Assembly (NCBI GenBank): GCA_964589975.1
Contig: CAZPVH010000001.1
Span: 246,851-310,850 of the forward strand
DNA length: 64,000 nt
Source of the DNA: an uncultured Candidatus Saccharibacteria bacterium
GTDB lineage: Bacteria; Patescibacteriota; Minisyncoccia; Phycocordibacterales; CSBR16-119
Direction: 5' to 3'
Below, piece by piece: positions 4,853 through 64,000 of this stretch. Under the pieces are notes generated by a model, which saw nothing but the letters and a program-made list of their open reading frames with translations, was not told where the DNA came from and did no database searches. The position numbers were made by a program, and so were the translations under genes. Position 1 is the first letter of the stretch. The number at the start of each line of letters is the position of its first letter.

Positions 4853-5845
4853 CTAGAGACCTTGGTCGGCCAGGGCGTTTGACTCAAGTCTCTCTAGGAA
4901 TTGTATTTGGGCTTCTTTGAAATTATCTGGATTGCCGCCCCAAGCATGAAGCGCGTCGTTTTGAAGCGCTCGCGAATAAGAAAAAGCAATTTGCCATGGT
5001 AGTGGCTCCAGACGCGCAATCTCGCGGAGATTGTTCGTTGCCTCATCGGGAGTTTGTCCACCCGAGAGAAAGACGACGCCCGCGACATCCTTTGGAACCG
5101 TTTTTAGCAGGGTTTCAGTCGTAAATTTAGCGACCGTTTTCGCGTCCGCCCGAACCGAGGCTTCGCTTCCAGAGATAACCATACTGGTTTTTAGGATTAG
5201 GCCCTTTGGATCAACGAAATGCTTCGAGAGCTCTTCAAAAAGTATTTTTAGGACTTGTTCAATTATCATTTGCGCCTTTTCTATGGTGTGCGAACCATCA
5301 AGCATAACTTCGGGCTCAACCATTGGAACAATAGACTCGTCCTGGCAGGCCTTGGCATAACGCGCCAGAATTTTGGCATTCTCGCGAATACACTCATCTG
5401 ACGGGGTTGTGGCGGAGATCTTGAACGCGGCTCGCCATTTGGCGAAAGAGGCTCCCATGGATTTATATTCCTGAAGCCGGCCCGGCAGACCATTGAGGCC
5501 CTGGGTAATATTTTCTTCTGGAGATCCAGTCATAGGGACCAGCCCCTCATCAACTTTTATTCCAACCAAAATGCTTCTTCGTTCCAAAATCATTGAAAAA
5601 GGTATTCCAAGCTTGTCGGTTTGCCGAATGGTTTCGTCATAAAGTATGACTCCAGTAATAAAATGCTCCAGATCTGGCGTTGTCAGAAGTAATTCACGCC
5701 ATTCACGGCGCATTTCTTCAGTTTCAGGAATTCCGAGCGCGTGAAAACGCGCATTGCATGTATGAATACTTTCATCCGCGGCTAAAATTCCCTTTTTGGG
5801 TTCAACCAGACGATTAGCGATTGTATGAAGTTGCTGAATATTCAT
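4853..5845 (-). CDS. fba: fructose-bisphosphate aldolase, class I (eukaryotic-type)
   Basis: 330 aa. GILAADES signature and Schiff-base lysine region. Confidence 0.85.
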   Translation of the reverse strand: MNIQQLHTIANRLVEPKKGILAADESIHTCNARFHALGIPETEEMRREWRELLLTTPDLEHFITGVILYDETIRQTDKLGIPFSMILERRSILVGIKVDEGLVPMTGSPEENITQGLNGLPGRLQEYKSMGASFAKWRAAFKISATTPSDECIRENAKILARYAKACQDESIVPMVEPEVMLDGSHTIEKAQMIIEQVLKILFEELSKHFVDPKGLILKTSMVISGSEASVRADAKTVAKFTTETLLKTVPKDVAGVVFLSGGQTPDEATNNLREIARLEPLPWQIAFSYSRALQNDALHAWGGNPDNFKEAQIQFLERLESNALADQGL

Positions 5846-6328: not shown

Positions 6329-6760
6329 TTAAGCAGCATCTTTATATTCTTCGTCTTCAAATCCCTCCTTATCCAATTCAGCATTGGCATTCAAATGCTT
6401 TTCATTTGTTTCTTCTAATGTCTCAACTTCCGGCTCATCAAAAACGCCCTTTTCTTTCCAATCCGAATGGCGATCACTCAATTTCTCTTTTCTTTTTTCA
6501 TTACTAGTATTGAATGCCGTACGAAAATCTTTAAACTCATCACGAAACTGTACTTCGTGGCTAAATTTATGCTCATCTGTGCCCGGCGTCTCATAGCCCT
6601 CATCGTTCCGCGCATCCTGACGAGAAGCATAGAACTCTGGACTTTCTGAAGAGCGATCAAAATGTGCGACACCATCGATAGCCGGCTTTCCGCTATTTCT
6701 TCCTTCTACGTTTTTTTCAGTTGCTTTCCTTTTTCCCAAAAATCTTTCCAACATATACAA
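6329..6760 (-). CDS. acidic low-complexity hypothetical protein
   Basis: 143 aa, D/E-rich, predicted disordered. Confidence 0.4.
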   Translation of the reverse strand: MYMLERFLGKRKATEKNVEGRNSGKPAIDGVAHFDRSSESPEFYASRQDARNDEGYETPGTDEHKFSHEVQFRDEFKDFRTAFNTSNEKRKEKLSDRHSDWKEKGVFDEPEVETLEETNEKHLNANAELDKEGFEDEEYKDAA

Positions 6761-6768
6761 GAATTATT

Positions 6769-6981
6769 TTATAATCCCGCAGTCTTTAAAAAGTTTTCCA
6801 AAAACTTCTTCGTATACCCCATCTCGTTATCATACCACGCCATGACTTTCACAAGATTTCCTCCGACAACACGAGTCATTTCCAGGTCCACGATCGATGG
6901 AATAGTTACTCCAGCGATATCTAATGCAACATACATATTTTCATAACTGTGTTTGCCTAAGATACTCATTATACCCTTCAA
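6769..6981 (-). pseudogene. duplicated 3' fragment of gap (GAPDH C-terminal about 45 aa with a novel N-terminus)
   Basis: nt 6808-6922 are about 93% identical to nt 7298-7412 inside gap. The encoded VTIPSIVDLEMTRVVGGNLVKVMAWYDNEMGYTK matches the GAPDH C-terminus. Confidence 0.6.
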
Positions 6982-7252: not shown

Positions 7253-8308
7253 CTAATGTAAACCCTGCGCTGTTTTTATAACATGTTCAAGGAGCGTCTT
7301 CGTATACCCCATCTCGTTATCATACCATGCCATTACCTTGACCAGATTTCCTCCGACAACACGAGTCATTTCCAGGTCCACGATCGATGGAATAGTTACT
7401 CCGACTATATCTGAGGACACAATCGGCTCGTCTGTCGCCGTCAGAAGTCCAGCCCAGCGCTCTGATTTAGACGCTTTTACAAGGATAGAGTTTACTTCTT
7501 CCACAGTCGTCGGTTTTTTCGATATAAAAGTGATATCAACAAGCGACCCGACTGGAACCGGTACACGGATTGAGATGCCGTCGAAAAGTCCCGTAAGTGC
7601 GGGGAAGGCTTTTGTCACCGCGATAGCCGCGCCAGTCGAGCTTGGAACAATATTTTCCGCTGCCGCTCGGCCCTCGCGCAAATCCTTCTTTGATGGTCCG
7701 TCGACAAGCGCCTGAGAAGCGGTGTAGCCATGAACCGTAGAAAGAATTGCCTTCTCAATTCCCAGAGCTTCGTGTAAAACACCGATAAGCGGAGACGCTG
7801 CATTTGTAGTACAAGAAGCGTTCGATGTTATATCACATGTGCCGAATTTGTCTTCGTTCACGCCAAGAAGAATCGTTTCGCCATGGACCACCTGCCCTGA
7901 GCCTGTCGAAGGGTCACTGTCCTTTGCCGGAGCAGAAATCACAACTTTCTTCGCACCTTGATCAATATGGAATTTCGCTTTTTCGAAAGATGTGAAGAGT
8001 CCGGTGGATTCGACGACAACATCGATGTCAAGCTCCTTCCATGGAAGACCGCTTGGCTCCTTTGATGAAACGAATCTCGTCTCGATAGTCCTCGTACCAT
8101 CAGTAACAACGATGTTCCCCGTAGAAAAATCAACGGAGAAAGGCGCCCTACCATAAACAGTATCGTATTTAAGAAGATACGAGAGACTCTCGATACTGCC
8201 GAGATCGTTCACAGCCACGACTTCAATATCGTCGCGCTCCCAAGCCATCTTATAAAACGCTCGGCCGATTCGGCCAAAACCGTTTATTGCAACACGAACT
8301 TTTTTCAT
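7253..8308 (-). CDS. gap: glyceraldehyde-3-phosphate dehydrogenase
   Basis: 351 aa. INGFGRIGR NAD-binding motif and SNASCTTN active-site Cys motif. Confidence 0.95.
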   Translation of the reverse strand: MKKVRVAINGFGRIGRAFYKMAWERDDIEVVAVNDLGSIESLSYLLKYDTVYGRAPFSVDFSTGNIVVTDGTRTIETRFVSSKEPSGLPWKELDIDVVVESTGLFTSFEKAKFHIDQGAKKVVISAPAKDSDPSTGSGQVVHGETILLGVNEDKFGTCDITSNASCTTNAASPLIGVLHEALGIEKAILSTVHGYTASQALVDGPSKKDLREGRAAAENIVPSSTGAAIAVTKAFPALTGLFDGISIRVPVPVGSLVDITFISKKPTTVEEVNSILVKASKSERWAGLLTATDEPIVSSDIVGVTIPSIVDLEMTRVVGGNLVKVMAWYDNEMGYTKTLLEHVIKTAQGLH

Positions 8309-11781: not shown

Positions 11782-12699
11782 TTAGCTTTTCAGGGCCGCT
11801 TTAGCAAGGGCAATTGCGCCGTCGCGCGACCCTGCGCCGGCCAGGAATAGCATGTTATGGCAAAATGTCGCGTCCGGTACTCCTGATACTTTTTGTAATT
11901 CTCCATCACGCTTTCCTCCCCATGATGCCGGGAGAGGCTTTCTATTCTTTGTTGAACCCATAGAGTCCCTGGCAGTCGTGACATGCCACTCACCCCGACG
12001 GCTTGGGTAGACTATGTAGATTGCTTCAGGCAAATGAAGCGCTCCAACTGTAACCGCGTGTCGACCAACACCCCTGTCGACAATGATGATGCTTTTATTG
12101 CTGATCGAATCATAGCGCTCTTTCATATAGACATTCACTTCTTGCTGCTCTTTGGCCTGAGCGATGGCTTTCACCAGAACTTTCTTTGCAAACCTTACTA
12201 CCTCACAAAAAGCGCGATCGAAATCTTTCGGCTCCGCGCCTTCTGTCGGGTGAAATATTCCCACAACATCCTGAAAAGTTACCGGGTCGAGATGTTCAAC
12301 GACTCTTTTATACACATCAACGCCATTGTCATGCGCGTCTATCGGCTGAACCAAGTATTTATCTATTTCCTCGGCAATTATTGAGCTGTCACAGAGATCG
12401 GCGCCGAATTTCTTCCAAACCAAACCAAACGATGCAAACGGCACGCCATTCGCACGCTCTCCTGCGCCTCCTTTTTGGTGATGATCGAATCTGTTTTTCT
12501 CCGGGTCATATGTTCCCCCCACATCAAAAACGAAATCTCCGCGAGCAAAGTCAGATTCCTCGCGGCTGCGAACTACCTTTGCGTCTCGGCCATCTTTTTC
12601 CAGAATGAGTTCGATCGTCGCGCAGGCAAACACGTCGTCCGTATGGAACGATCCGCTGTGTGTTACCAGGATTTTTCTTCTTTTGAAAAAATTAATCAC
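11782..12699 (-). CDS. MYG1/UPF0160 family metal-dependent hydrolase
   Basis: THSGSFHTDDVFA N-terminal His motif characteristic of the MYG1 family. Confidence 0.7.
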   Translation of the reverse strand: MINFFKRRKILVTHSGSFHTDDVFACATIELILEKDGRDAKVVRSREESDFARGDFVFDVGGTYDPEKNRFDHHQKGGAGERANGVPFASFGLVWKKFGADLCDSSIIAEEIDKYLVQPIDAHDNGVDVYKRVVEHLDPVTFQDVVGIFHPTEGAEPKDFDRAFCEVVRFAKKVLVKAIAQAKEQQEVNVYMKERYDSISNKSIIIVDRGVGRHAVTVGALHLPEAIYIVYPSRRGEWHVTTARDSMGSTKNRKPLPASWGGKRDGELQKVSGVPDATFCHNMLFLAGAGSRDGAIALAKAALKS

Positions 12700-13036
12700 G
12701 ATCTTTTATGACACGATCAGCCAGCCAATTCAAAACTGAGACGATGAGCGAACCGAGGAATGCGGCCATAAACGTATCTACTGTCATACCCGGGATGAGA
12801 CCAGAAACAAACCAGAAGAACAGAGCGTTCAGGATAAGCAGAAAAAAACCGAGAGTAATTATGGTGATCGGAATTGTCAGAATTTTTACGACAGGCTTAA
12901 CCGCAACCTGGATAATGGTAAGCGCGGCTCCGGCGATAAGAATCGAAACCCAATCCGCCAGCTCAATTCCCGGTATCAGATAATCAGCGGCAATAACCGC
13001 GAGGGTTAGAAATATGAATCTAAAAAATAATTTCAT
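12692..13036 (-). CDS. DUF360/YvlD phage-holin-4-like membrane protein
   Basis: Four TM helices with the GxxxAxxxA pattern. The start was set to the Met at 13036, directly abutting an arm of the repeat element. Confidence 0.6.
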   Translation of the reverse strand: MKLFFRFIFLTLAVIAADYLIPGIELADWVSILIAGAALTIIQVAVKPVVKILTIPITIITLGFFLLILNALFFWFVSGLIPGMTVDTFMAAFLGSLIVSVLNWLADRVIKDRD

Positions 13037-13157
13037 CCCGTTAGAAGCAGGTCGCGGTCTTATCGCTACCAGCATATTTATCAATTATAATACTGTACTT
13101 TGAATTTAACATAATTTGATTTGTCATCCCGTGGCCGCGGCGTTTAACGGGATTCAT
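13034..13157. repeat. intergenic inverted-repeat element, copy A (left arm CATCCCGTTAGAAGCAGGTCGCGGTC, AT-rich core, degenerate/composite right arm)
   Basis: Left arm 13034-13059 abuts the ATG of the holin-like gene. Right arm 13125-13157 is a collapsed palindrome CATCCCGT..AACGGGATTCAT. Confidence 0.8.
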
Positions 13158-13616: not shown

Positions 13617-13656
13617 ATCACCATGTTAGCAAATTTGATAGAATGTTTCCAGATCT

Positions 13657-13770
13657 CCCGTTAGAGATCGTGGTCGCTAGTAAGAAAAAACCTTATGAAA
13701 ATATCAAATACAAATATTATTAAAATAGGCTGGATAGTCTGCGGAACGACCGCGACCTATCTCTAACGGG
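13657..13770. repeat. intergenic inverted-repeat element, copy B (in a divergent intergenic region)
   Basis: Arms CCCGTTAGAGATCGTGGTCG (13657-13676) and CGACCGCGACCTATCTCTAACGGG (13747-13770). The right arm is immediately followed by ATG at 13771. Confidence 0.8.
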
Positions 13771-14493
13771 ATGAAAAAACAAACACTTCTTTTCCTTGAT
13801 ACAGAAACGACCGGCAATCAGCCTTCCGACCGGCTTTGTCAGCTTTGCTACAAACTGGGCAACAAAATCGTAAACGAACTTTACAAGCCGCCAGTTACCA
13901 TAAGTATTGAATCCATGGCCATTCATCACATCACGACAAAGATGGTGGAAGATAAACCGGCGTTTACAGAAAGTCCTGAATACGAAGAACTAAAGGGTTT
14001 ACTTGAATCCGGCGCAATCCTCATCGCGCACAATGCCAAATTTGATATCGGTATGATTGAGAAAGAGGGTCTCACAGTTCCAACTCATATTGATACATAC
14101 CGCGTAGCGCGCCATCTCGATACCGAAAGTAAAATTCCTTCTTACCGACTCCAATACCTTCGATACTTCCTTGGGATTGTCATCGATGCCACAGCTCACG
14201 ACGCCAAAGGTGATGTTTTGGTTCTGGAGCAGCTATTCGACAGACTACTGGCAAAGATTATGGAAAAGGACGGGCTGTCCAAAGAGGAAGCAATTGAAGC
14301 GATGGTAAAAATTTCCGCCGAACCAGTTACATTTACCATGTTTAACTTCGGCAAATACAAGGGCAAGACTGTATCTGAAGTCATTGCTTGTGATCGGAAC
14401 TACTGCCAGTGGCTCCTGACTGAGAAAAAGAAAAACCCGGCTGATGAAGAGGATTGGATCTATACTCTTGAAAAACTGCTCGAAGTGAAGTAG
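13771..14493 (+). CDS. DEDDh 3'-5' exonuclease (DnaQ/epsilon-like), with a C-terminal extension
   Basis: FLDTETTG ... HNAKFD ... H..DAKGD exo motifs. Confidence 0.8.
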   Translation: MKKQTLLFLDTETTGNQPSDRLCQLCYKLGNKIVNELYKPPVTISIESMAIHHITTKMVEDKPAFTESPEYEELKGLLESGAILIAHNAKFDIGMIEKEGLTVPTHIDTYRVARHLDTESKIPSYRLQYLRYFLGIVIDATAHDAKGDVLVLEQLFDRLLAKIMEKDGLSKEEAIEAMVKISAEPVTFTMFNFGKYKGKTVSEVIACDRNYCQWLLTEKKKNPADEEDWIYTLEKLLEVK

Positions 14494-15325: not shown

Positions 15326-15378
15326 GACAGTAGGCCCCGCATTTCGCGGGGCCTTTGGTTTTCTGATAGAATAACGGA

Positions 15379-16449
15379 ATGAATCAATGGATTTTCTTAA
15401 TAATAGGATTAGTTGTTGGCGGAATTACCCTTTCCCTATTCCGAAACAAGCGCCGACCAGAAGAGACCCAGGGTCTTTTACTAATGCAACAACAACTTTC
15501 AGACTTCACTAAAAAAATTGATACCGCACTATTGGAGAATCGTCGTGACATGAACGACGCAGTTCGTTCCCAGTTTTCCGAATCTCAGAAACTTTTACGA
15601 GAAATCAATGAGCAGATGCAAAAAAATTTGGTTGACGTAACCCGCGAGCAAACAAAAGCTAACGAAGCTACACGTCAATTTATGACCATCGCTGAACAAT
15701 TAGCAAACCTTGAAAAAACGTTAAAACACCAAAAGCAACGTGGTAATTGGGGAGAGGCGTCATTAGAACTTATCCTCCAAAACACATTAGCCCCCGGTCA
15801 ATACACAATGCAGTACGAATTTATCAATAAAGAAAAGGTCGATGCTGTGATTACAACCAAGGAGGGATTAATACCAATTGACGCAAAATTTTCTCTTGAT
15901 AACTATAATCGCATATCGCAAGCAACAGACGAGCGTCAACGTGAAGAGCTTGAAAAAGAATTTAAATCAGATCTTAAAAAACGTATTGATGAAACAGCAA
16001 AATATATTAGACCAAACGAGGGCACTCTGCCTTTTGCGTTTATGTATATTCCAGCTGAAGGAATTTACTATGATTTATTAGTTGGCGAGGTCAATAAAGC
16101 AAGTATTAATGCGCGTAATCTTATTGATTATGCCTACAATGACAAAAAAGTAGTAATCGTTTCGCCCACAACTTTCATGGCTTATTTACAATCGGTTTTA
16201 TATGGCTTTAAAGCATTTAAAATTGAAGAGGGTGCAAAAGATATCATTAAGAGAGTAAATGAACTTGGAAAACATTTAAAAGCCTATGAGGATTATATGG
16301 GTAAATTAGGAAACGCGATCGGTACAACTGTTAACCATTACAACTCTGCATACAAGGAACTTGGCAAAGTAGACAAGGACGTTACTCGAATCACGGGCGA
16401 CACTCCAGGCATAGAGCCAATATTAATAGACAAACCATTCGTTGAATAG
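15379..16449 (+). CDS. rmuC: DNA recombination protein RmuC
   Basis: N-terminal TM, long coiled coil, C-terminal RmuC nuclease-like domain. Confidence 0.85.
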   Translation: MNQWIFLIIGLVVGGITLSLFRNKRRPEETQGLLLMQQQLSDFTKKIDTALLENRRDMNDAVRSQFSESQKLLREINEQMQKNLVDVTREQTKANEATRQFMTIAEQLANLEKTLKHQKQRGNWGEASLELILQNTLAPGQYTMQYEFINKEKVDAVITTKEGLIPIDAKFSLDNYNRISQATDERQREELEKEFKSDLKKRIDETAKYIRPNEGTLPFAFMYIPAEGIYYDLLVGEVNKASINARNLIDYAYNDKKVVIVSPTTFMAYLQSVLYGFKAFKIEEGAKDIIKRVNELGKHLKAYEDYMGKLGNAIGTTVNHYNSAYKELGKVDKDVTRITGDTPGIEPILIDKPFVE

Positions 16450-19319: not shown

Positions 19320-20210
19320 TTAACGTACTGGCTTCTTCCAACAGTCGGTGCCGAGATACCCGACGAAGATCGGCTGCGTGAGAAATGGTCGCGCAACCAC
19401 AGCCAGGAATGGTCGATCAATGGTGTGTGGTTTTGGAGCATCCAAGCTGATACCTCGCGATATCATCATCGCGACAGCACTCTCAACTTTTGCGCCGACA
19501 TGATCCATGCAGAACTTCGTCTGCTGGACGGCTTGGGTGATCACCGCAATACGTCCATCCCTTCCGAAGGTCGAGAGGCCAATCAGCCAGCCGAGATCCG
19601 GTTGCAAATCGAGATCGATCATCGGAAAGATCACGCCTGGATACTGCTGGAGGCTCGGCTTCGTTCCGCTCATGATACGTAGAGCAAACCCGTTGAGCTC
19701 TTCCTCCGCCACGGCCTCGTCGGTCATGGTGAGGTACACAACGTCGCCTGAAACCGTCTCGATCCTCACGATCGGTTCGAAGTGGTCCGGGAGCTCAAGG
19801 AATTCAATTCCTTTTTTGAGCAGCACGGCCGGAAACATCCGGTCCGTATTTTGGAGACGGACACCCGTCTCGATTCCCTTCTCGAGCCATTCGAGCATAA
19901 GCTTCAAGACGCTGGCAATGCCGATCTCTCCCGCAGCTCCAGTTGGTTTGAGTTCGATCACAAACCCACGGTCCCGGAGGAACCTGTTTACTGTGGCAAT
20001 GTCCTGCGAGGCGATGCTCTCAAGTTCAGGCATGTCGGATACTTCATCGCGACCGGGCGCGAAAGCGAGCTCGATGAATTGGTGCTGAACTTCATCAAGG
20101 GCTTTCCAAGGCCGATGTGGTCCAAGTTCCTTTTCGGCAGCCACAAGGGCGCCAACGATCGGATAGACGACAGATGTTGCGGTATTGGTCTTTGTTTGCG
20201 CGGCTTCCAT
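19320..20210 (-). CDS. hypothetical protein (296 aa), GC-rich island gene
   Basis: Preceded by a repeated promoter/5'UTR module. The C-terminus has a faint serpin-like motif that was not trusted. Confidence 0.5.
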   Translation of the reverse strand: MEAAQTKTNTATSVVYPIVGALVAAEKELGPHRPWKALDEVQHQFIELAFAPGRDEVSDMPELESIASQDIATVNRFLRDRGFVIELKPTGAAGEIGIASVLKLMLEWLEKGIETGVRLQNTDRMFPAVLLKKGIEFLELPDHFEPIVRIETVSGDVVYLTMTDEAVAEEELNGFALRIMSGTKPSLQQYPGVIFPMIDLDLQPDLGWLIGLSTFGRDGRIAVITQAVQQTKFCMDHVGAKVESAVAMMISRGISLDAPKPHTIDRPFLAVVARPFLTQPIFVGYLGTDCWKKPVR

Positions 20211-21266: not shown

Positions 21267-22058
21267 TCAAACAGCCACGCCATTAAGTTCCGCGATGATA
21301 GGAACTTGTTGTTTGTGGAAGTTGACCACCTCGATAGCTCTTCGTATGTAAGCCTCCTGGTTTACAGTCAGCTCGTCATCGGTAAGAGGCTCGATACTGC
21401 CCTTGAGGATCTTCTTAGCAAGTCCTCCAGAAAGGAGTTCGGTAAAAGCGGTGTCTTCTCCACGCTCAAGCATTCCTCGTAGTCCGTAGAAGTCAGAACG
21501 CTTGAAAAGCATCTCCTGATTGGTGGTGCGGAAATAGTGACCGCCATTTCCACCATCATACGTCCACTGAATGTTTGAATGACAGTGCATCACCCAGTCC
21601 CAACCAGGACAAAGCATCTTGGCTGAGATCCAGTCATATTCCACCTTACTCCTGTCCTTCGCCCCACCGATGTAGATCATGATCTCGTCACCGACTTTGA
21701 AGTGTTTGACGCCGCGGAATCGTGGGAGAACGAACTTTTTCTCATCTGCTTTTGCATGAAGTCGCTTAAGCAGTTTTACAAGTTCGCCCATGTTGTACTG
21801 GACCAGATTGTTACGCGCACTTTTTGCCAGGGCTTCCTCGATGAGAAGGTTCGACTTTCGTTTCTTCTTCTTCAAACTTCTCACTTCTTCTCGGACATCT
21901 TCAAGTTCTTGATATGCTTCGATGATGTGTTCCGAGGCACGAGAAGAAATGGCCTCGATATTAGCGACTCCGAGCGTCTTACTGACTGCCGGAAGTACGA
22001 TCGTAGGTAGTGAGAAAACGACACTTGCGTAGTCCCACAAGTCTTGTTGTTTGGGCAT
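21267..22058 (-). CDS. hypothetical protein (263 aa)
   Basis: Driven by promoter/leader copy 2. A hairpin terminator follows its stop. Confidence 0.5.
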   Translation of the reverse strand: MPKQQDLWDYASVVFSLPTIVLPAVSKTLGVANIEAISSRASEHIIEAYQELEDVREEVRSLKKKKRKSNLLIEEALAKSARNNLVQYNMGELVKLLKRLHAKADEKKFVLPRFRGVKHFKVGDEIMIYIGGAKDRSKVEYDWISAKMLCPGWDWVMHCHSNIQWTYDGGNGGHYFRTTNQEMLFKRSDFYGLRGMLERGEDTAFTELLSGGLAKKILKGSIEPLTDDELTVNQEAYIRRAIEVVNFHKQQVPIIAELNGVAV

Positions 22059-24115: not shown

Positions 24116-24676
24116 ATGAAATTCCGTTATATTATTTTTGCTTTTATTCTCTTCTGCGCTTGGCTAGTACTCTCTATCATTCGCTATGCGGATAATTCCG
24201 AGGCGGCTGGTGACAGCGCCATAGTGCTCGGCGCCGCCGCGTGGAACGGAAAGCCGTCTCCGGTTTTCAAGGCACGCATAGATCACGCTATAGAGCTTTA
24301 TAAAGAGGGCTCTGTTCAGAAAATATATTTTACTGGTGGGACTGACTATGCCGACCAAACATCTGAAGCTGAAACTGCTCGTAACTATGCGGTGGAGCGT
24401 GGCGTTAATGTAGCCGATACTGAAATGGAGACGAAATCCCAAACCACCATGGGTAATCTCATGAACATCTCTCCGCTTATATCTCCTGCAGAAAAAGTAT
24501 TAATTGTTACTGACCCACTCCACGAATACCGAGCCGTACGAATGGCAAAGAGACTCGGCATGGACGCTCACCCATCGCCCACACCGTACACAAAATATGA
24601 GTCAGTGAAAACACAGATTCCATTCCTCATCCGTGAGACATATTTCATGATTATATTTTGGCTGTTCGGAATCTAG
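24116..24676 (+). CDS. DUF218 (YdcF/SanA/ElyC-like) family protein
   Basis: N-terminal TM, then a DUF218-like core (VLGAA ... GG). Confidence 0.6.
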   Translation: MKFRYIIFAFILFCAWLVLSIIRYADNSEAAGDSAIVLGAAAWNGKPSPVFKARIDHAIELYKEGSVQKIYFTGGTDYADQTSEAETARNYAVERGVNVADTEMETKSQTTMGNLMNISPLISPAEKVLIVTDPLHEYRAVRMAKRLGMDAHPSPTPYTKYESVKTQIPFLIRETYFMIIFWLFGI

Positions 24677-34256: not shown

Positions 34257-34814
34257 TTATTTCTTAACAAATAACTTTACTTGCGCCGGACGGATAATAG
34301 TTTTCTTCGTCTTGTATCCTTTCTGAACGATCTCCGCTATATGATGATCCTGCGACTCGTCTTCTATCTCAATTTCTTCGACAATATGATGAATTTCTGG
34401 ATTGAATTTTTCTTTTGCGTCTTTTATTTCTTCCACTCCGTTGTTCTCGAGGATCTTGCAAAGCTGGTTGTAAATATATTCCACACCCTTACGCCAATTT
34501 TCTGAGACCGATTCCCACGAAGCTTTATTCTTCATCGCCATCTCGAAACTGTCGAGCACGGGAAGCAATTCTTCGATGAATCCTTCGACAACATAACCCT
34601 TTAGGTCTTTCAGTTGCTCGCCGGAATTTTTCTGGAGGTTCGCATAGTCAGCGAGAGCCCTTTGCCAACCATCAAGATTTTTCTGAGATTCATCCTTGGC
34701 ATCTTTTAGGTCTTGCCGAAGCTTCTTTATCTTGTCCGCACCTGTGGATTCCCCCTCCTCCTCGGTAAACTCGATTTCTGGTTCAAAATTATCATCATTT
34801 TTGTCTAATTTCAT
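34257..34814 (-). CDS. grpE: nucleotide exchange factor GrpE
   Basis: Coiled-coil N-terminus and a GrpE C-terminal beta domain. Confidence 0.85.
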   Translation of the reverse strand: MKLDKNDDNFEPEIEFTEEEGESTGADKIKKLRQDLKDAKDESQKNLDGWQRALADYANLQKNSGEQLKDLKGYVVEGFIEELLPVLDSFEMAMKNKASWESVSENWRKGVEYIYNQLCKILENNGVEEIKDAKEKFNPEIHHIVEEIEIEDESQDHHIAEIVQKGYKTKKTIIRPAQVKLFVKK

Positions 34815-34928
34815 CCCTTTAGAGATAGCAAACTTTTAGTTTGCGTACCCCACCAAACTTAATAATAATTTTAACTATTCCTCAAGCTCCCACTTAGATT
34901 TCTTCGGTAATCTGACATCTCTAACGGG
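34811..34928. repeat. intergenic inverted-repeat element, copy G (degenerate)
   Basis: Left arm CATCCCTTTAGAGATAGC overlaps the grpE ATG. Right arm ATCTCTAACGGGAC lies at about 34915-34928. Confidence 0.55.
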
Positions 34929-35025
34929 ACAAGTGACTTAAGTATAGACTAATTTATAATTTTGACAAGTATTTCACGTACGTGGAAAACTTGCTAATAC
35001 CAATACTATATGCTAAATTTTATAC

Positions 35026-37298: not shown

Positions 37299-38996
37299 CT
37301 ATCTTTCCAAGAAAACCCTGGCCATCTGGACATCAAAATACGACGCGCCTTTAATTTTGCTTTTGACCGGCGAGAGATTCAGTTCTTCAGTTTTGTTATA
37401 AATTTCCTGAAAGGCATTCAGGCACTCTTTAAACTTCTTTGTCTTGGGCCGGAGATATTCGATGCGATCAATGGAGCACAATCCGGTCATAAGAAGCTTC
37501 TCAATATGGTTCAAAACTGTTTCTTTGGTCAGCCCCCTCTCTACCGCGATCTCGTCGATTGATTTTTGCGCGTTGATTAGGACAAGGGTCTTCTCAAAAG
37601 TTGACGTTCGTTTCTCTTCCTCCTCTTTAGCTTTAATGTCGATTGCTTTTATAGATCCTCCGGAGCGCTGGATGAATTCCTCATGCGATTTTTGCATCTC
37701 TTCCGGAGATTTTTTCGAAAGGTATTCGAGTATCTGCTCAGACTTCTTGCGGAAGCGAACATCGGCTTCGATAATCTTTGGATGAACCATGAGGGCGTTC
37801 GCGTTGAAACCAAGGAGCGATAGGCCCGCCAGCGTCCGGACGCGCGAAAGCGCCACGTAGCCCTGTCCGTATTCAAAGGCTTTCCCCAGGTCAATCTCGG
37901 CGGCATCTAGGCTCATGCCCTGGCTCTTGTGAACCGTAATAGCCCAGGCCAGGCGTAAAGGAACTTGGATTATGGAAGCCAAGACTTTATCGCCATCCTG
38001 GACACTCCAGGAGTCAGGCTCAATCACGATCTCCCGACCGTCGTTTGTTATGACAAGTGGATATCCCGTATCATCGTCGAAGCCAATGACTTCGGCGATA
38101 GTGCCATTCACATATCCGGCTTCAAAATTATTCTTCGTACACATAACAACAGCGCCGACTTTGAGACACAGGCTTTCCGGAGAGAGGCAGGTTTCTTTTA
38201 AGCGCTCAACGTACTTCGCCTTACCTCGGGAATCCATTTCAAAATATTGTTCCTCTGTCTCTAGCTTTTCCAGCTCGACGGAGTTTATTTGATCAACATT
38301 AGCGTTGTGAGTATAGAGCTTCGTTGCTTTTACAGTATCTTCAAACGGGACATGAAGCCTGTCGTGTAAATCCTCAAATTCTTCTTCGACTTCGCCTCGA
38401 CGAATACGATCAAGGACGGAGAGAAGCGCATCATCTTCTTGACGGTGTTGTTCGGTTATATAGGCGACCAACGGATTCATTTCCGCCCAACTCTTTGATT
38501 CAAAGGCAAACTTTGCTTCCTCGCCTTTCTTTGAAATTGGCGGAAGCTGGAAGAAGTCGCCTACTAGAACTACTTGTAGCCCGCCGAATGGGAGTTCATT
38601 GCGCCTGAAGCCCTTGCAGACTTTGTTCACGGAATCCAGGAGTTCAGCCGAGAGCATGGAAATCTCGTCAATGATAAGAACTTTCGTCTTGTCGTAGCGG
38701 CTCCAGAGATATTTCTTGCCTTCGAGCTCGTCGACTTCATAATCAGTAATATTTTGCCGGACACCGATGCCTGACCAGGAGTGAATGGTCACACCGCCAA
38801 TATGCGTCGCGGCAATGCCGGTTGAAGCGGTGATAGCGACAGGAATATCGTGCTCACGGAGATACTGCGTGTATTGATTCAAAACATAAGTCTTGCCCGC
38901 CCCCGGCGCACCGGTCAAGAATACATTTGCGCCAGATTTCAATATTGTGAGAGCTTCCGCTTGGGTCATAGGATTAAATTTTAGCACGAAAAGCAA
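37299..38996 (-). CDS. Pif1/RecD-family SF1B DNA helicase with a C-terminal HTH-like tail
   Basis: Walker A GAPGAGKT and the Pif1 signature GDFFQLPPI. Confidence 0.8.
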   Translation of the reverse strand: MLFVLKFNPMTQAEALTILKSGANVFLTGAPGAGKTYVLNQYTQYLREHDIPVAITASTGIAATHIGGVTIHSWSGIGVRQNITDYEVDELEGKKYLWSRYDKTKVLIIDEISMLSAELLDSVNKVCKGFRRNELPFGGLQVVLVGDFFQLPPISKKGEEAKFAFESKSWAEMNPLVAYITEQHRQEDDALLSVLDRIRRGEVEEEFEDLHDRLHVPFEDTVKATKLYTHNANVDQINSVELEKLETEEQYFEMDSRGKAKYVERLKETCLSPESLCLKVGAVVMCTKNNFEAGYVNGTIAEVIGFDDDTGYPLVITNDGREIVIEPDSWSVQDGDKVLASIIQVPLRLAWAITVHKSQGMSLDAAEIDLGKAFEYGQGYVALSRVRTLAGLSLLGFNANALMVHPKIIEADVRFRKKSEQILEYLSKKSPEEMQKSHEEFIQRSGGSIKAIDIKAKEEEEKRTSTFEKTLVLINAQKSIDEIAVERGLTKETVLNHIEKLLMTGLCSIDRIEYLRPKTKKFKECLNAFQEIYNKTEELNLSPVKSKIKGASYFDVQMARVFLER

Positions 38997-39058
38997 AAGG
39001 CCCCGCGAGTTGCGGGACCTTGAGATACTGCTGCAAAAGCCTTAGGTATTTGACAGGC

Positions 39059-46761: not shown

Positions 46762-47601
46762 TCACCAAGAAATGGCGGCGCGCCTTTCAACGCGCAAGAG
46801 TTCGTTGCCGTACATCACTCGCACAACATACATCCCAGGCGAAGCGGCAAGCAATTCAAACTGTCGAAGAAAATCCTGGCCCGAAATCCTCTTGACGAAA
46901 GCGCCCCGAGAATCAAGTACTTCATATGACAACGCTGCGGCACCAGCCGAGTACTCCTCGACTGTGGTGGACAGGCTGCACGGGTACACAACGGTTTGCG
47001 GCGCCCAGTCGACATCATAGAGACTGTTTCCCAAATACTCCGCCACATGGAAGTCGTAAGTTTCCTGCGGCACATTGAGAACGGTATCGATCGGGCTGAG
47101 GCCAGCATTGGGGGCTTCGAATTCCGCATACAAGTTTCCGCCATCGAAAAGCTTTGCATACAGGTATAGTCCTTGATCGTTGGGGGCTGTGAGCCGGATG
47201 GGAGCCAGCATGTCGCCGCAATTTGTGTCTGGCAGAATCTCCAGAGTGCCGATGAACGAAAAGCACGAATTCATTTCGTATACACTGCTCGGGAAAATCG
47301 TATCGCGTACTCCGCCGATCCAGAACGACTTGAAGACCTGGTAGTAACCAGGTGGAACCGCAATCGTAGTATCGAATTCTCCCGACGACCACAGGGTTTC
47401 ATAGAAGTTAGTGCTCCTATAGATGGTAATCTCGACAGAGTCGACGCCGAGCTCCGAGAGTCCGGTGAACCGGAGATCACCGACAGGATTTTCGAGCCCG
47501 CAATCCGTCTGGGCCAAGACTTCGACATAAATGTCGGCTTGGCTAAAAGAGATTCTCGGCAGGACGAGTCCCGCGAGCAAAAGAAGAGTCGTGATTTTCA
47601 T
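46762..47601 (-). CDS. secreted protein with a C-terminal beta-sandwich sorting-like tail (Por/T9SS-CTD-like)
   Basis: Signal peptide. C-terminus ...LDSRGAFVKRISG...GMYVVRVMYGNELLRVERR. Confidence 0.45.
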   Translation of the reverse strand: MKITTLLLLAGLVLPRISFSQADIYVEVLAQTDCGLENPVGDLRFTGLSELGVDSVEITIYRSTNFYETLWSSGEFDTTIAVPPGYYQVFKSFWIGGVRDTIFPSSVYEMNSCFSFIGTLEILPDTNCGDMLAPIRLTAPNDQGLYLYAKLFDGGNLYAEFEAPNAGLSPIDTVLNVPQETYDFHVAEYLGNSLYDVDWAPQTVVYPCSLSTTVEEYSAGAAALSYEVLDSRGAFVKRISGQDFLRQFELLAASPGMYVVRVMYGNELLRVERRAAISW

Positions 47602-47681: not shown

Positions 47682-48110
47682 TCATGCGGGCTTTTTGTCT
47701 TTAACGTCTAACCAGACCAGATCCCCCCTGAGCTCCTCGGCTAACTTGCGAAGCTTTTCTTGGTCTATGAGTCTGGCATAGTCCTTATCCCAAACCATGG
47801 CGGACCAGCCCTGATCATGATATCGCCGGATATGGAACATGAGATAGGGGCTAACATCGCCCTTTTCAGGAACTTCAAAAATTCTGTCGTGCGGTACTTC
47901 TTGTTCCCCACGTAATATAGTCATCGAGTAGAATGTGGGGTCTTCGAGCTTACCGAAGAAAAAATCAACGGCGTGATCGCAAGCTTTTTGCGGATCGGTT
48001 GTGATGAGATGCGGCATGATGTAAGGATCAAACCATACCTCCTTTCCCTTAGTAGGTTCCGAAGTAGGATCGTCTCTGAACTTCCAGACGTACACAAGAT
48101 ATGTCAGCAT
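47682..48110 (-). CDS. hypothetical protein (142 aa)
   Basis: Complete ORF. A terminator at 47655-47690 is shared with the promoter of the upstream gene. Confidence 0.4.
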   Translation of the reverse strand: MLTYLVYVWKFRDDPTSEPTKGKEVWFDPYIMPHLITTDPQKACDHAVDFFFGKLEDPTFYSMTILRGEQEVPHDRIFEVPEKGDVSPYLMFHIRRYHDQGWSAMVWDKDYARLIDQEKLRKLAEELRGDLVWLDVKDKKPA

Positions 48111-49879: not shown

Positions 49880-50368
49880 CTAATTTACGGCGGCTTTGTC
49901 ACTAGTCGGTTTCGGCATGGCTGCTCCCATGAGGCAGTAGAAAGTCTTGCTGCCGATCTCTCGTCCGAAGACGATCTCGACGCGGCGATAGATCGGTTTA
50001 TAGCGCGATCCCGGCTCGAGGACCCGAGACATTACCTGGCTGTGAGCCTGGAAGTACCCTAGCCCGACGCCATGACTCATCTCCTTGCTTATGAATATGC
50101 TGGCTTCAGGGTTGGAAAGGTAGGACCCGAGTTCAGTTTCTACAAACCGCGCATTTTCTCGGGTGTAGAACTTCTCGTCAATCCTAGCGCCCAAGATCTC
50201 ATTGGTCTGCAGATCCTGAAACGGATTTTTCTTTTCAGGATCATCGGTCTCGGGCTTAGCCTCGATCATGAGCTCCAGCTGGTTGCCGAGGTCAGTGATG
50301 AGAAATGGGATGGTCTTTTCGGGGAGCAATCCCCGCAACTTTTGAAGGAGCGTGTTATCGCTTTCCAT
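49880..50368 (-). CDS. hypothetical protein (162 aa)
   Basis: Complete ORF. Confidence 0.4.
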   Translation of the reverse strand: MESDNTLLQKLRGLLPEKTIPFLITDLGNQLELMIEAKPETDDPEKKNPFQDLQTNEILGARIDEKFYTRENARFVETELGSYLSNPEASIFISKEMSHGVGLGYFQAHSQVMSRVLEPGSRYKPIYRRVEIVFGREIGSKTFYCLMGAAMPKPTSDKAAVN

Positions 50369-51516: not shown

Positions 51517-52053
51517 CTACAGACTCATTAATTTCTTGAACACTTCAAAAGTCGCGCGGGTATCGGCCAGAGCCGTATGCGACTTTTCGTTATGAATACC
51601 GAAATATTCGCAAAGGCGATGGAGATTGAATCGTTCGGCGCGTGGATCCTTGAAAAGCTTGGCGTAGGCCATGGAGATTGTGTCGAGTTTGGCATAAAAC
51701 ATTTCATTTTTCATACCAGTTTTCGTCAGAGCGCGTTCGATGAATGAGTAATCAAATGTTACATTCTGGGCAACCATGATCGCGCCGTCGGACTTTTCTG
51801 AAAATACTTTCATGGCCTCAGAAAGAGTGTTGGCAAAAATCCACTGAGCTTCATCATATCCATTCACTTTGAGCGCCGTCGGCTCCGCATTTTCTATATG
51901 CTCCGGTTTTATCTTCATCTCACGCTCTTCGATAACGGAAAAATTTCCCTTATCCTGTTTTACCAAGATGTAAGCGAGCTCAATGATCTCATGCTTCTCA
52001 GGATCAGTTCCCGTAGTCTCAACGTCGACAAAAATCAAATTCTCGTTTCTCAT
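51517..52053 (-). CDS. DEDDh 3'-5' exonuclease (DnaQ-like)
   Basis: FVDVETTG ... HTALADT motifs. Its ATG is fused to an arm of repeat copy C. Confidence 0.8.
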   Translation of the reverse strand: MRNENLIFVDVETTGTDPEKHEIIELAYILVKQDKGNFSVIEEREMKIKPEHIENAEPTALKVNGYDEAQWIFANTLSEAMKVFSEKSDGAIMVAQNVTFDYSFIERALTKTGMKNEMFYAKLDTISMAYAKLFKDPRAERFNLHRLCEYFGIHNEKSHTALADTRATFEVFKKLMSL

Positions 52054-52167
52054 CCCGTTAGAGGCAGATCGCGGTCTTGTCGCAATCTGCCTTAGTTATA
52101 TTTTTAATTTTATTTTGATTTGAATTCATAATTTTAAATTTTTACAGCGGTCGTGGCCTCTAACGGG
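52051..52167. repeat. intergenic inverted-repeat element, copy C
   Basis: Arms CATCCCGTTAGAGGCAGATCGCGGTC and GCGGTCGTGGCCTCTAACGGG. The core has TTCAAA-N18-TATAAC on the minus strand. Confidence 0.8.
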
Positions 52168-52174
52168 ACGCATA

Positions 52175-54457: not shown

Positions 54458-54561
54458 AGATGAGTTAAGTATACGGCATACGAAGCGTCCGAAGAAGTGG
54501 AAACAAAGAAAGACTAAAGAAAAAGGCCGACGGTTTCCCGTCGGCCTTTTACTTTTATCAA

Positions 54562-56820: not shown

Positions 56821-57375
56821 TTATTTGCCCATTATGACACCCTCTTTTCCCCTGAAGATTTCTTCCAGCGAGAGATTGGCTTCATCGACTTTTGATTGCA
56901 GATTTTCCTTGGCCCGAATCTTTTCGTCCTCTGACATCTCGCCTTCCCTGGCCTGGCGATCAATCTCGCGGATCATGTTCTCGCGCTCTTTCTTGACGGA
57001 CACCCTGGCATCCTCGAGCTTCGCTTTTATAACCTTCACCAGTTTCTCGCGGTTCTCGGTCGTAAGCATTGGGAATATTACCCTGAGTCCCGTCTGGTCA
57101 ACGGCAACGGAAAGACCGAGGTCAGATTTCAAAATCTCTTTTTCAATTTCTTTCACCTGCTGCTTGTCCCACGGAGTCACTCGGAGAGTCTTCGGGTCCT
57201 CAATTGAAATAGACGCCACGTTTCGAAGTGGCTGCCTGGTGCCATAAGAGTCGACAGAGATTCCGTCCAGAACCATCGGGCTCGCAGCACCGGTATGAAG
57301 GGAAGAATATTCCTTCGTCAGCCAGTCTTTCGTCCCGCGAACGCTGTCTTCGAACGGTTTTAGATTGAATTGCAT
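56821..57375 (-). CDS. frr: ribosome recycling factor
   Basis: 184 aa with an RRF pattern. Its ATG is fused to an arm of repeat copy D. Confidence 0.9.
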   Translation of the reverse strand: MQFNLKPFEDSVRGTKDWLTKEYSSLHTGAASPMVLDGISVDSYGTRQPLRNVASISIEDPKTLRVTPWDKQQVKEIEKEILKSDLGLSVAVDQTGLRVIFPMLTTENREKLVKVIKAKLEDARVSVKKERENMIREIDRQAREGEMSEDEKIRAKENLQSKVDEANLSLEEIFRGKEGVIMGK

Positions 57376-57490
57376 CCCGTTAGAAGCAGGTCGCGGTCTT
57401 TACGCGATCTGCCATGATTAGATTTATAATTGTTACTTTTATTGTCATAAATTTGAATCCTTACTCACGCGACCGCGGCTTCTAACGGGA
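57373..57490. repeat. intergenic inverted-repeat element, copy D
   Basis: Arms CATCCCGTTAGAAGCAGGTCGCGGTC and GCGACCGCGGCTTCTAACGGG, with about 70 bp of AT-rich core. Confidence 0.85.
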
Positions 57491-57569
57491 TTGCATAAGT
57501 AAGAGAATTCTAGCAGAAAAGTCTTTCGAACAAAAGAAGAGCCCCGACGCAACGCCGGGGCCTCGTTCT

Positions 57570-59573: not shown

Positions 59574-59688
59574 CCCGTTAGAAGCAGGTCGCGGTCGTTC
59601 CGCAATCTCCTTGGCCATAATTTATAAACTTTATATATATTTTCATATTCGGTTTTTTAAATAAATCGCGACCGCGGCTTCTAACGGG
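59571..59688. repeat. intergenic inverted-repeat element, copy E
   Basis: Arms CATCCCGTTAGAAGCAGGTCGCGGTC and CGCGACCGCGGCTTCTAACGGG. Confidence 0.85.
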
Positions 59689-60711: not shown

Positions 60712-60804
60712 GTGGGAGGAGTATAGCATTTTTAGTTCGAGGCTATATATGCTTGACTTATTTAAATTTTTATGTTACTATATAGATAAAACAAATTCAA
60801 CCCC

Positions 60805-61017: not shown

Positions 61018-61058
61018 CCCCGCCCGAAAGCCGCCCGGCTTTCGGGCGGTTTTTCTTT
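61018..61058 (+). terminator. rho-independent terminator T1
   Basis: CGCCCGAAAG-CCGCCCGG-CTTTCGGGCG followed by a T-run. Near-identical to T3 at 62200-62240. Confidence 0.75.
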
Positions 61059-62791: not shown

Positions 62792-62855
62792 AAAGCCCTT
62801 CATTATTGAGGGGCTTTTTGTATGGAGCCGTTTCGGATAAGATGAAGACATGAAT

Positions 62856-62969
62856 CCCGTTAGAGATCTGGTGTTAGGATCCAAAACTGCCCATAAATAA
62901 TATGATCGATAATTATAATGAAAATAGTAGACGAGATACGCAAAATAAAATTTTGCTATCTCTAACGGG
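62856..62969. repeat. intergenic inverted-repeat element, copy F
   Basis: CCCGTTAGAGATC ... GATCTCTAACGGG (13 bp perfect inverted repeat). The right arm is followed directly by ATG at 62970. Confidence 0.75.
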
Positions 62970-64000
62970 ATGAAGCTTATTGAAGCTAGCCCCATATCGT
63001 CAAAAGTCGCCAAAGATTCTTTGACTTATTTCTCTTCGAAAAATGTCGCGGTAGGCGATATTATTTCTGTAGAGGTCAGAAAGAAAAAATACGACGCGCT
63101 GGTGGTGGGCGTTAGTGACGTAAAAGACGCGAAGGGCGAACTCAAGTCCGCTGATTTCGGCATGAAGAAAGTTGAAGCTGTTATGGGCAGCGCGCCATTT
63201 TATCCGGAATTTTTTGATGCGTGCAGAGCGATGCGCGATTACTTTGTCGGCAATCTCGGGCAAATTATTGACTATTTCATCCCCTCAGAATTCCTGGAGC
63301 AATACGAAGCATTGCCTCTGCCCAAGAAAAGAATTGTGGGCGGCGCTTCAGTTTTTCATTTATGCGCCACAGTCCGTGAAGCCGAAAAGAAATTTGAATC
63401 ATTGAAACCCGATTTCGATAATATTTTCCTAATTCATGGAAGCCTGCGAAAGAAAACTCTCATAGAGCGATACACGGAAATCCTTTCACACGACGGACCA
63501 ATCACCGTCATCATGACGCCATCATTCCTTTTTCTGCCCCGCCACGACACAAGATCAATTATTATCGAAAATGATATTGGTGGACACTGGAGCACTATCA
63601 AACGTCCGTATTTCGACTTGCGAGTATTCGCCAAGTATTTGGCGGGCAAACTTGGCGCGAAACTTTCTTACGGAGAGGGACTCGTGTCCGTAGAGACCTA
63701 CCGAGAAACAAAAGCAGCCCCGAAACTTAACCTGGGGCAAAACCCGCAAATCATCGATATGACGAACAAAGAAAACCTCTTCAAGAAGAGCTTCATTATT
63801 TCCAGCAATACAGAGACGATACTTAAAAAAAGCGGGCACACGTTTCTATTTTCGCTCCGAAAGGGCTTGGCGAGCCAAGTCATATGCCACGACTGCAAAC
63901 ATGTCCTCTCTCATGACGACCAGCCCGTCACGCTGCACGAAAAAGATGGCGTACGGGTTTTTCGAAGCGCATATTCGAGAAAAGCTATCGACACAAAGGT
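62970..64000 (+). CDS. priA: primosomal protein N' (PriA)-like, N-terminal 343 aa. Runs off the window end and is not in the ORF track.
   Basis: Hand translation MKLIEASPISSKVAKDSLTYFSS... Collinear by eye with the PriA DNA-binding N-terminus and helicase core (FLIHGSLRK ~ VLHSGLND, IIIENDIGGHW ~ VIVIDEEHDSSY, HDCKH Cys region). No GxxxxGKT and no DEEH. Confidence 0.55.
   Translation, partial: MKLIEASPISSKVAKDSLTYFSSKNVAVGDIISVEVRKKKYDALVVGVSDVKDAKGELKSADFGMKKVEAVMGSAPFYPEFFDACRAMRDYFVGNLGQIIDYFIPSEFLEQYEALPLPKKRIVGGASVFHLCATVREAEKKFESLKPDFDNIFLIHGSLRKKTLIERYTEILSHDGPITVIMTPSFLFLPRHDTRSIIIENDIGGHWSTIKRPYFDLRVFAKYLAGKLGAKLSYGEGLVSVETYRETKAAPKLNLGQNPQIIDMTNKENLFKKSFIISSNTETILKKSGHTFLFSLRKGLASQVICHDCKHVLSHDDQPVTLHEKDGVRVFRSAYSRKAIDTK

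Follow-up and report, generated by a model that had tools for sequence, protein, structure and literature searches.

A MITE-like element of Patescibacteria placed on start codons, with short reading frames that may couple it to the downstream gene

The closest described counterparts of the repeated unit reported here are the Correia elements (CREE) of Neisseria, which are MITEs of approximately 100–150 bp with terminal inverted repeats and a TA duplication, are co-transcribed with genes and form a long hairpin. Our element resembles them in its size, its terminal inverted repeats and short duplication, the many intergenic copies adjacent to genes, and a presence that varies between relatives. 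It differs in the sequence of the repeat and in its target, the duplication being a 4-bp TGRR rather than TA; in addition it sits on the start codon, its terminal base rebuilds the ATG and its repeat holds an in-frame stop 4 nt away, and whereas Correia elements belong to a single genus, the present element is distributed across a phylum-level radiation. REPINs and their RAYT genes offer a second comparison, since REPINs are also units of about 110 bp with two inverted arms that form a hairpin and are abundant in intergenic DNA. Target-site duplications are not expected of HUH/Y1 enzymes, however, and such duplications distinguish the element from REPINs, as do the RAYT-like genes encountered here, which are flanked by other hairpins. 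Small selfish inserts can be tolerated through translation in or at an essential gene, as are the gap of T4 gene 60, the 'byp' sequences of Magnusiomyces mitochondria and the Rickettsia palindromic elements, all of which are hopped over or translated in frame; this likeness extends to our element, but those inserts lie within a protein, whereas the element precedes the coding sequence and is apparently read as separate short ORFs (sORFs). Finally, termination-reinitiation (TeRe) coupling offers a parallel in its stop and start codons, which lie 4 nt apart or overlap (ATGA, TAATG) with no Shine-Dalgarno motif, the difference being that the upstream frame in our case is an sORF of a mobile element and its stop lies within the terminal inverted repeat; in TeRe coupling, a ribosome arriving from the upstream frame could unfold secondary structure around the next start (PMC12548453, PMC6728339).

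The window, by which we mean the whole 64-kb stretch of Candidatus Saccharibacteria DNA that was analysed, contains 11 sites matching CTAACGGGATG with at most one mismatch, compared to 0.83 expected from shuffled sequence. All exact TCTAACGGG sites fall within seven inverted pairs with a spacing of 114–115 bp, defining seven elements of 116–117 bp with the form T-CCCGTTAGAR...YTCTAACGGG-A, and a relaxed two-arm scan of the 64 kb revealed neither solo arms nor extra copies. In each pair an ATG stands directly after exactly one end, and the A of this gene-side ATG lies at 13036(-), 13771(+), 34814(-), 52053(-), 57375(-), 59573(-) or 62970(+). The elements and their parts are as follows.

13036..13152 (-): element 1, 117 bp with T...A ends, preceding the PF04020 holin-like gene 12692-13036
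13153-13157: distal duplicate ATGAA of element 1
13041-13157: the single sORF of element 1, 38 codons, running from the distal ATG to the TAA of the gene-side repeat
13656..13771 (+): element 2, 116 bp, preceding the ExoX-like DEDDh exonuclease gene 13771-14493; this is the copy named in the preliminary description
13695-13766: internal sORF of element 2, 23 codons, its TAA ending 4 nt before the ATG
34814..34929 (-): element 3, 116 bp, preceding grpE 34257-34814, with gene-side arm TCTAAAGGG
52053..52168 (-): element 4, 116 bp, preceding the DEDDh exonuclease gene 51517-52053 and following yceG (stop 52175-52177)
52169-52173: distal ATGCG of element 4, 1 nt past the yceG stop
52126-52173: first sORF of element 4, 15 codons, its TGA overlapping the ATG of the second
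52058-52129: second sORF of element 4, 23 codons, its TAA ending 4 nt before the gene ATG
57375..57490 (-): element 5, 116 bp, preceding frr 56821-57375
57491-57496: duplicate ATGCAA(T) of element 5
57507-57512: -10 box TAGAAT upstream of the distal ATG of element 5, with TG at 57514-57515
57482-57496: first sORF of element 5, MQSR followed by a stop
57380-57448: second sORF of element 5, 22 codons
59573..59689 (-): element 6, 117 bp, preceding holB 58908-59573, with mreB (59698-60729) on its far side
59578-59646: internal sORF of element 6, 22 codons, with TAA end
62855..62970 (+): element 7, 116 bp, preceding a priA-like gene (62970 to the window end)
62850-62854: distal ATGAA of element 7
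62850-62900: first sORF of element 7, 16 codons, followed by TAA-T-ATG
62902-62973: second sORF of element 7, 23 codons, its TGA overlapping the priA ATG (ATGA)

A target-site duplication is recognisable in four of the seven copies (13036, 52053 with one mismatch, 57375 and 62855) and absent in the other three (13656, 34814, 59573). Element 2 lies in a divergent intergenic region without a distal ATG, and element 6 has ATTCT where the distal duplicate would stand. The least typical copy is that preceding grpE, which lacks both a distal ATG and any sORF of at least 10 codons.

The identities assigned to the seven downstream genes in the preliminary description (PF04020 holin-like protein, ExoX-like DEDDh exonuclease, GrpE, second DEDDh exonuclease, RRF, HolB and PriA) were confirmed, as was the reading of their ATGs as real starts, for which the offsets of Pfam domains and the equal lengths of orthologues in relatives provide support (RRF, for example, has 184 aa in dozens of relatives). 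That description had also reported an arm fused to the ATG without a spacer in all seven copies. The junction is indeed non-random in every one, but it consists of a one-base overlap and not a zero-length spacer: aligned in gene sense, a T always precedes CCCG and an A always follows CGGG in the window copies, so that the inverted repeat reads T-CCCGTTAGA...TCTAACGGG-A and its last base is the A of the ATG. The end away from the gene is also always GGGA. What makes the junction constant is that the first base of the start codon comes from the end of the element itself. That the seven genes lack a Shine-Dalgarno motif is likewise correct, although it carries no special meaning; such a motif precedes only 2 of the 77 genes in the window, and its absence here is therefore ordinary for this genome. 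A leaderless-type -10 box (often TGnTAnAAT) situated 5–9 nt before the ATG is found at 21 of the 77. NCBIfam scores are low for this DNA and homologues of its RRF carry the name Paceibacterota; the organism belongs to the Patescibacteria (CPR).

In order to describe the element more widely we scanned one genome per species with the pattern TCCCGTTAGA-N88-104-TCTAACGGGA, which identified at least 119 loci. Nearly all of the matches listed belong to Patescibacteria, including Saccharibacteria, Paceibacterota/Parcubacteria, Kaiser-, Wolfe-, Yanofsky-, Kerfeld- and Levyibacteria, and Kazan. No element match was found in viral contigs or plasmids, and a search of Rfam returned nothing at the gathering threshold or at E<=1 save one chance match. 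Counts given below are not fully independent, as the elements are interrelated. In 113 of 129 elements among the matches listed, an ATG opening an ORF of at least 50 aa is joined to one end and not the other, and one more element has such an ATG at both ends. In the window itself there are 40 ATGRR sites at gene starts compared to 69 in intergenic sequence, and all seven elements lie on starts, which has p ~0.001 if all non-disruptive ATGRR sites are taken as equal. This preference may be due to targeting of insertion, or to the survival of those insertions that occurred there.

The far end of the element carries the mark of insertion. Directly before TCCCG stands ATGRR, with A in 103, T in 101 and G in 98 of 120 elements among the matches listed, giving a flank pattern ATGRR|TCCCG...CGGG|ATGRR in which most elements retain a distal copy of the start codon. 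An exact 5-nt direct repeat ATGNN flanks 86 of 120 elements, and among the 92 with a distal ATG the two bases after it agree with those of the gene side in 86, whereas shuffles gave 33 on average and 45 at most (both among the matches listed). The offset of the distal ATG from TCCCG is 5 nt in 92 of the listed elements, 4 nt in 8 and 6 nt in 4. Rare copies among the matches listed lie away from an ATG and show clean 4-bp duplications (CTGA, CTTA, TTTA), while in one variant with C...G ends (L104) the rebuilt start is GTG, the sequence being ATGAA|CCCCGTTAG...CTAACGGGG|TGAAGG before a 179-aa ORF. From the non-ATG copies and the C...G variant it follows that the duplication is the 4-bp TGRR and that the first base of the new start is the element's.

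Empty sites were sought in relatives whose RRF is 75–90% identical and which share the gene order mreB-holB-hyp-frr-M50-sigma-DUF8128-yceG-exo; CCCGTTAG is absent from their syntenic loci of 5.5–20.5 kb. At frr (L120, L122, L124) the empty site consists of a -10 box and then ATGCAAT or ATGAATT, and the junctions can be set side by side: the relatives read ...TGCTAGAAT-N10-ATGAATTT or ...ATGCAATTT, while the window reads ...TGCTAGAAT-N10-ATGCAAT[114 bp]ATGCAATTC, the leaderless-type frr promoter remaining with the distal ATG. The empty holB site is TAA-N1-5-ATG (L120-L123), and at the exonuclease gene the yceG stop and start form TAATG in a relative (L128) compared to TAA-T-ATGCG[element]ATGAG in the window. 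Two further loci show signs of recent movement, one with two nearly identical copies at two different genes 212 bp apart, both with ATGGA repeats (L069), and one with tandem copies that have one ATGAA in common (L067). We are therefore highly confident that the repeated unit is mobile and that it inserts at start codons with duplication of the target site. The preliminary description had argued that a randomly inserting transposon would not reproduce such a junction, an argument overturned by the duplications and by the empty sites in close relatives. The unit shares several features with MITEs, being small (under about 300 bp) and without a transposase gene, with terminal inverted repeats, a duplication, empty sites and multiple copies (seven in 64 kb). 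It is a MITE-like element, widespread in Patescibacteria, whose properties we have not found described; the searchable literature was queried for the motif, for leaderless genes or MITEs in Patescibacteria, and for MITEs at start codons or in coupling.

The terminal inverted repeat has 13 bp, T-CCCGTTAGARRY...RYYTCTAACGGG-A, and is present in all seven window copies; among the matches listed the terminal stem without gaps measures 10 to 19 bp, with 13 bp as its length in 78 of 120 elements. Among the matches listed most elements are 108–124 bp long, with shorter forms of 60–82 bp and a few of 190–281 bp, and the ORFs inside them are short only (up to 40 codons). The interior is A+T-rich, variable and essentially unconserved. 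Just inside one repeat lies a hairpin of 7–11 bp, typically (Y)ACGG-NNNNN-loop-NNNNN-CCTRY, which is on the gene side in 89, on the far side in 12 and ambiguous in 19 of 120 elements among the matches listed, and thus on the gene side in approximately 88% of the clear cases. Five of its pairs covary, with 13–16 double compensatory changes in 36 sequences, such that the sequence is free and the pairing kept. Folding as RNA in gene sense gives z-scores of -3.4 to -7.0 relative to shuffled controls for six of the seven window copies, and the base of the terminal stem in the predicted fold is the A of the AUG. There is a modest excess of G.U over A.C on the sense strand in the gene-side 40 nt including the hairpin (124/1137 vs 78/1087 pairs), and no such bias in the terminal stem; as a sign of structure at the RNA level the excess is suggestive, not decisive.

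One relative (L125, RRF 93% identical) carries an element at the same frr site. The 33 nt of its gene-side arm match the window throughout, while the 4-fold degenerate sites of its frr are only 33% identical, and its hairpin differs by two C-to-U changes that keep the pairing as G.U. The conservation of the arm suggests selection on the arms at the level of the host. The interior of this copy has an identity of 0.68, no higher than that between paralogues, and its presence at the same site could reflect independent insertion of a related copy.

The gene-side repeat contains a stop codon, TTC-TAA-CGGG-ATG, 4 nt before the start, and the frame that ends in this TAA is preferentially open. Among the matches listed it is open for at least 20 codons in 66 of 120 elements (27 and 20 in the other two frames) and holds ATG-started ORFs of at least 15 codons in 57 of 120 (18 and 4 in the others), and it contains 181 stop codons compared to 326 and 272 (chi-square p = 1e-9). 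Element lengths favour a distal ATG in the TAA frame, this class containing 60 of 129 elements vs 28 and 41 in the other two among the matches listed. The sORFs that end in the TAA start at the distal ATG in 23 of 120 elements (MNPVR...TATCF and stop) and at an internal ATG in 39, mostly 64–85 nt upstream of the gene ATG, while in 13 further elements the only sORF of at least 10 codons ends in an ATGA overlap; in 37 of the 120, the window copy at grpE among them, no sORF runs up to the gene start (all among the matches listed). Many of the other elements listed have a first sORF that stops 40–100 nt upstream. We followed ORFs from the distal ATG, passing from each stop to the next ATG over gaps of no more than 4 nt, and among the matches listed this relay is complete from distal ATG to gene ATG in 35 of 92 elements, compared to 10.6 +/- 3.1 (maximum 19) in 200 shuffles of the interior, which kept base composition and nothing else. 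In the window it is complete in three of the four copies with a distal ATG. Close spacing of this kind is common in the window, where an overlap or a gap of at most 10 nt is found in 20 of 60 co-directional gene pairs. Among the matches listed, 18 of 61 internal sORF start codons (~30%) have a leaderless-type -10 box (TGnTAnAAT) 5–11 nt upstream, about the same share as for the real genes of the window. Translational coupling is most efficient at small distances and proceeds via RNA unfolding and/or reinitiation (PMC12548453). The arrangement of the element fits both routes, as it would allow an upstream ribosome to melt the structure and also to reinitiate over a few nucleotides.

The insertion itself can be described as follows. 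The element enters a start codon and duplicates the 4-bp TGRR; the original A-TGRR stays on the far side, and the terminal A (rarely G) of the element joins the duplicated TGRR to rebuild an ATG (or GTG) ahead of the gene. The far side keeps the old entry point, whether a leaderless-type promoter with its ATG or the stop of a preceding gene with its ATG. As regards expression, these observations suggest that ribosomes would still load at the original start codon or, probably in some copies, at an ATG preceded by a -10 box newly arisen within the A+T-rich interior. One or two sORFs would then be translated through the element, melting the terminal stem. Ribosomes would stop at the UAA that precedes the AUG by 4 nt, or at a UGA that shares bases with it (AUGA), and would reinitiate at the gene. 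Such an insertion would have little effect on the gene, and this would account for its persistence on the starts of essential genes. We consider it probable, with some reserve, that the element is a start-codon MITE family kept harmless by termination-reinitiation coupling, and we lean slightly towards termination-reinitiation through element-borne sORFs as the main route of expression, a judgement drawn from reading frames and spacing. That the element has evolved to live on start codons, targeting or surviving at sites of ribosome loading and handing ribosomes on via the stop in its repeat, is a more doubtful proposition which we advance only tentatively.

It might be argued instead that the element is a portable promoter comparable to Correia elements, whose A+T-rich interior promotes the gene and whose sORFs and TAA are by-products. 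Elements 2 and 3 (13656 and 34814) head transcription units without a distal ATG and therefore call for a promoter inside the element or for transcription across it, and the internal sORF starts that lie behind leaderless-type -10 boxes point in the same direction; it is probable, judging from these sequences, that some copies have acquired a promoter of their own in the interior. However no -10 box lies at a fixed distance from the hairpin or from the ATG in 99 elements among the matches listed, and a sigma-70 scan of the window copies gave no hit directed at the gene, the two hits within elements pointing away from it. Those promoters that are seen start an sORF and are thus compatible with coupling, while a promoter alone would leave unexplained the depletion of stops in one frame, the completed relays and the retained distal ATG, and we judge this explanation unlikely. 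Less likely still is that the terminal stem would be cut as RNA, for example by RNase III, to release an mRNA that begins at or near the AUG and is translated in leaderless fashion. RNase III cuts within stems and not at their base, which counts against such processing, as does its failure to account for the open TAA frame, the relays and the conserved distal ATG. In its favour are the strong terminal stem with its base at the A of the AUG, the frequency of leaderless-type starts among the window genes, and the conservation of RNase III and RNase J reported for Patescibacteria (PMC12641178).

A ribosome carrying initiator tRNA could also be imagined to slide from the distal AUG past the fold to an identical AUGRR, in the manner of a hop or shunt, given that the take-off site is the same as the landing site (ATGRR in each case) and that a stable stem separates the two. 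The matching sequences are already explained by target-site duplication, however, the frame-specific shortage of stops indicates that the interior is read and not skipped, and no stop codon consistently follows the distal ATG, so that we give this idea very little credence. The preliminary description proposed a regulon, possibly of replication and repair, under one factor that binds the arms, or else a leader ending in ...CUAACGGG-AUG that serves as a signal for initiation or RNA processing. It was right that the structure bears on translation initiation, but a dedicated initiation signal deserves little weight, and of all the readings considered here this pair is the one we find hardest to credit. 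Four of the seven window genes do function in replication or repair, and the arm sequence is conserved phylum-wide. Outside the window this enrichment disappears: the wider search for the element places approximately 90% of loci on a start codon but delivers no functional class, since the proteins downstream of 114 elements in other Patescibacteria represent 130 Pfam families, none of them matched more than three times (both among the matches listed). There is therefore no replication/repair regulon, and an arm-binding factor is left unsupported, as the same genes lack the element in close relatives and the duplications mark insertions.

Other assignments were tried and rejected. An alternative-sigma or phage promoter in the arm (ECF-like GGAAC-N14-TCTAA, or T3-like CTAAAGGGA) amounts to a resemblance and no more, since the -35-like part is unconserved, and it was set aside in view of the duplication and the empty sites. 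An integron attC site would have the core order RYYYAAC...GTTRRRY and not GTTAGAG...CTCTAAC, and the copies lie upstream of scattered housekeeping genes. The diversity of downstream Pfam families among the matches listed, the unconserved interior and the lack of a credible Rfam match speak against a cis-regulatory RNA or operator regulon, and the ATG-to-ATG distance follows no multiple-of-three rule as would be required of an in-frame insertion like the Rickettsia palindromic elements.

As regards the mobilising enzyme, the 119 loci of up to 8 kb among the matches listed yielded neither a recurrent transposase nor a longer autonomous copy with these ends, and no far-spaced pairs of repeats enclosing an ORF. 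Genes of the Y1_Tnp/RAYT type occur at seven loci among the matches listed and not in the window; RAYT was rejected as the mobilising enzyme, the four such genes with readable flanks bearing different hairpins. Repeats that start with CCC, together with a 4-bp duplication, recall what we take to be the ends of IS1380/piggyBac-type elements, which are alike in having repeats starting CC(C) and a 4-bp (or 4–5-bp) duplication but differ from our element, in which an extra T/A pair sits outside the CCC.

The element also has consequences for annotation. In the window a gene caller extended an ORF into the element (58908-59618), and RRF homologues annotated with 194–218 aa instead of 184 aa may be further extensions of this kind; the motif could serve to correct annotated start sites. 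Patescibacteria account for much of bacterial diversity, and their genomes are very small, with mobile DNA and regulators supposed to be scarce. An element on the start codons of approximately 9% of the genes in the window, essential ones included, and common to the whole radiation would constitute a major feature of such genomes for which we found no description, and it provides a test bed for translation without Shine-Dalgarno motifs, for leaderless and coupled initiation, and for the self-silencing of a transposon. If the coupling proposed here is true, about one gene in ten in some Patescibacteria, including the essential frr, grpE and holB, would be translated via a transposon-borne upstream ORF, and the host may have co-opted the element as a general layer of translational control.

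The interior of the element is variable apart from the motif (T/A)TATGA(A/C)AAT, which is kept in six of the seven window copies, 73-76 nt upstream of the gene ATG (for example at 13695, 52129, 57448 and 59646), and which supplies the start of the short ORF inside these elements. Length varies also. Short forms of 60-82 bp share the ends of the full-length element and mostly the ATGRR duplication (the copy of the start codon on the far side of the element), and a few putative longer forms of 190-281 bp occur at loci L075, L078, L079 and L090.

Short element forms
L029, 4316-4391
L034, 2170-2243
L036, 160-237
L056, 2236-2304
L111, 3931-4011
L104, 1344-1405

Two near-identical copies lie together at 6578-6909 of locus L069, the first before a 27-codon hydrophobic ORF (MDKAFSLFLLIIFAGILLYFLPLVCKP) and the second before frr; they differ at two positions, which jointly turn a G-C pair of an internal hairpin into A-U.

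Gene callers are misled by the element. The holB ORF, called mechanically as 58908-59618 (minus strand), is 15 codons too long and reaches into it. The database RRF proteins P0002, P0025, P0027, P0042 and P0045 have 194-218 aa compared to 184 aa, and in P0002 (from L125, with the element at frr), the one examined of the five, the extra N-terminal stretch reaches into the element; the other four may be further cases.

Genes for IS200-like Y1 or REP-associated tyrosine transposase (RAYT)-like proteins are present in seven loci (PF01797; NF047646 score under its cut-off).

Y1/RAYT-like genes
L006, 7212-8000
L012, 278-985
L024, about 7567-7980
L036, 3586-4242
L048, about 5580-5830
L089, 1749-2474
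L113, 6905-7615

Short perfect hairpins adjoin the gene in all four loci with readable flanks (L012, L036, L089 and L113), and in L036 the hairpin TACAAGGTTCAACCTTGTA flanks it on either side. These genes and hairpins may represent a separate REP/RAYT-like system in Patescibacteria.

Elsewhere in the window, perfect G+C-rich palindromes with a T-run after them on each strand separate some convergent or neighbouring genes (54521-54550, 61020-61049, about 38975-39045 and about 15330-15365) and look like bidirectional intrinsic terminators. The gene at 54562-55590 (minus strand) encodes an unusual sigma-like factor of 342 aa, which combines Sigma70_r4 and HARE-HTH domains and whose synteny with the neighbouring M50 peptidase gene is kept in every relative examined.

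An extended -10 box (TGnTAnAAT) lies 5-9 nt upstream of the ATG in about 27% of window genes; a Shine-Dalgarno motif is almost absent (2 of 77). Several window genes carry a short C/A-rich stretch (..AAAAACCAAA..) between a -10 box and the ATG, possibly a translation leader of a non-Shine-Dalgarno kind; 19320-20210 and 21267-22058 are preceded by nearly the same 30 nt (CCAGAACCTCAAAAAACCAAA).

Example genes with a -10 box near the ATG
7253-8308, minus strand
52175-53176, minus strand
24116-24676, plus strand
15379-16449, plus strand

Genes with an upstream C/A-rich leader
19320-20210, minus strand
21267-22058, minus strand
46762-47601, minus strand
47682-48110, minus strand
49880-50368, minus strand
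57570-58103, minus strand

The genome seems to depend on leaderless and coupled initiation.
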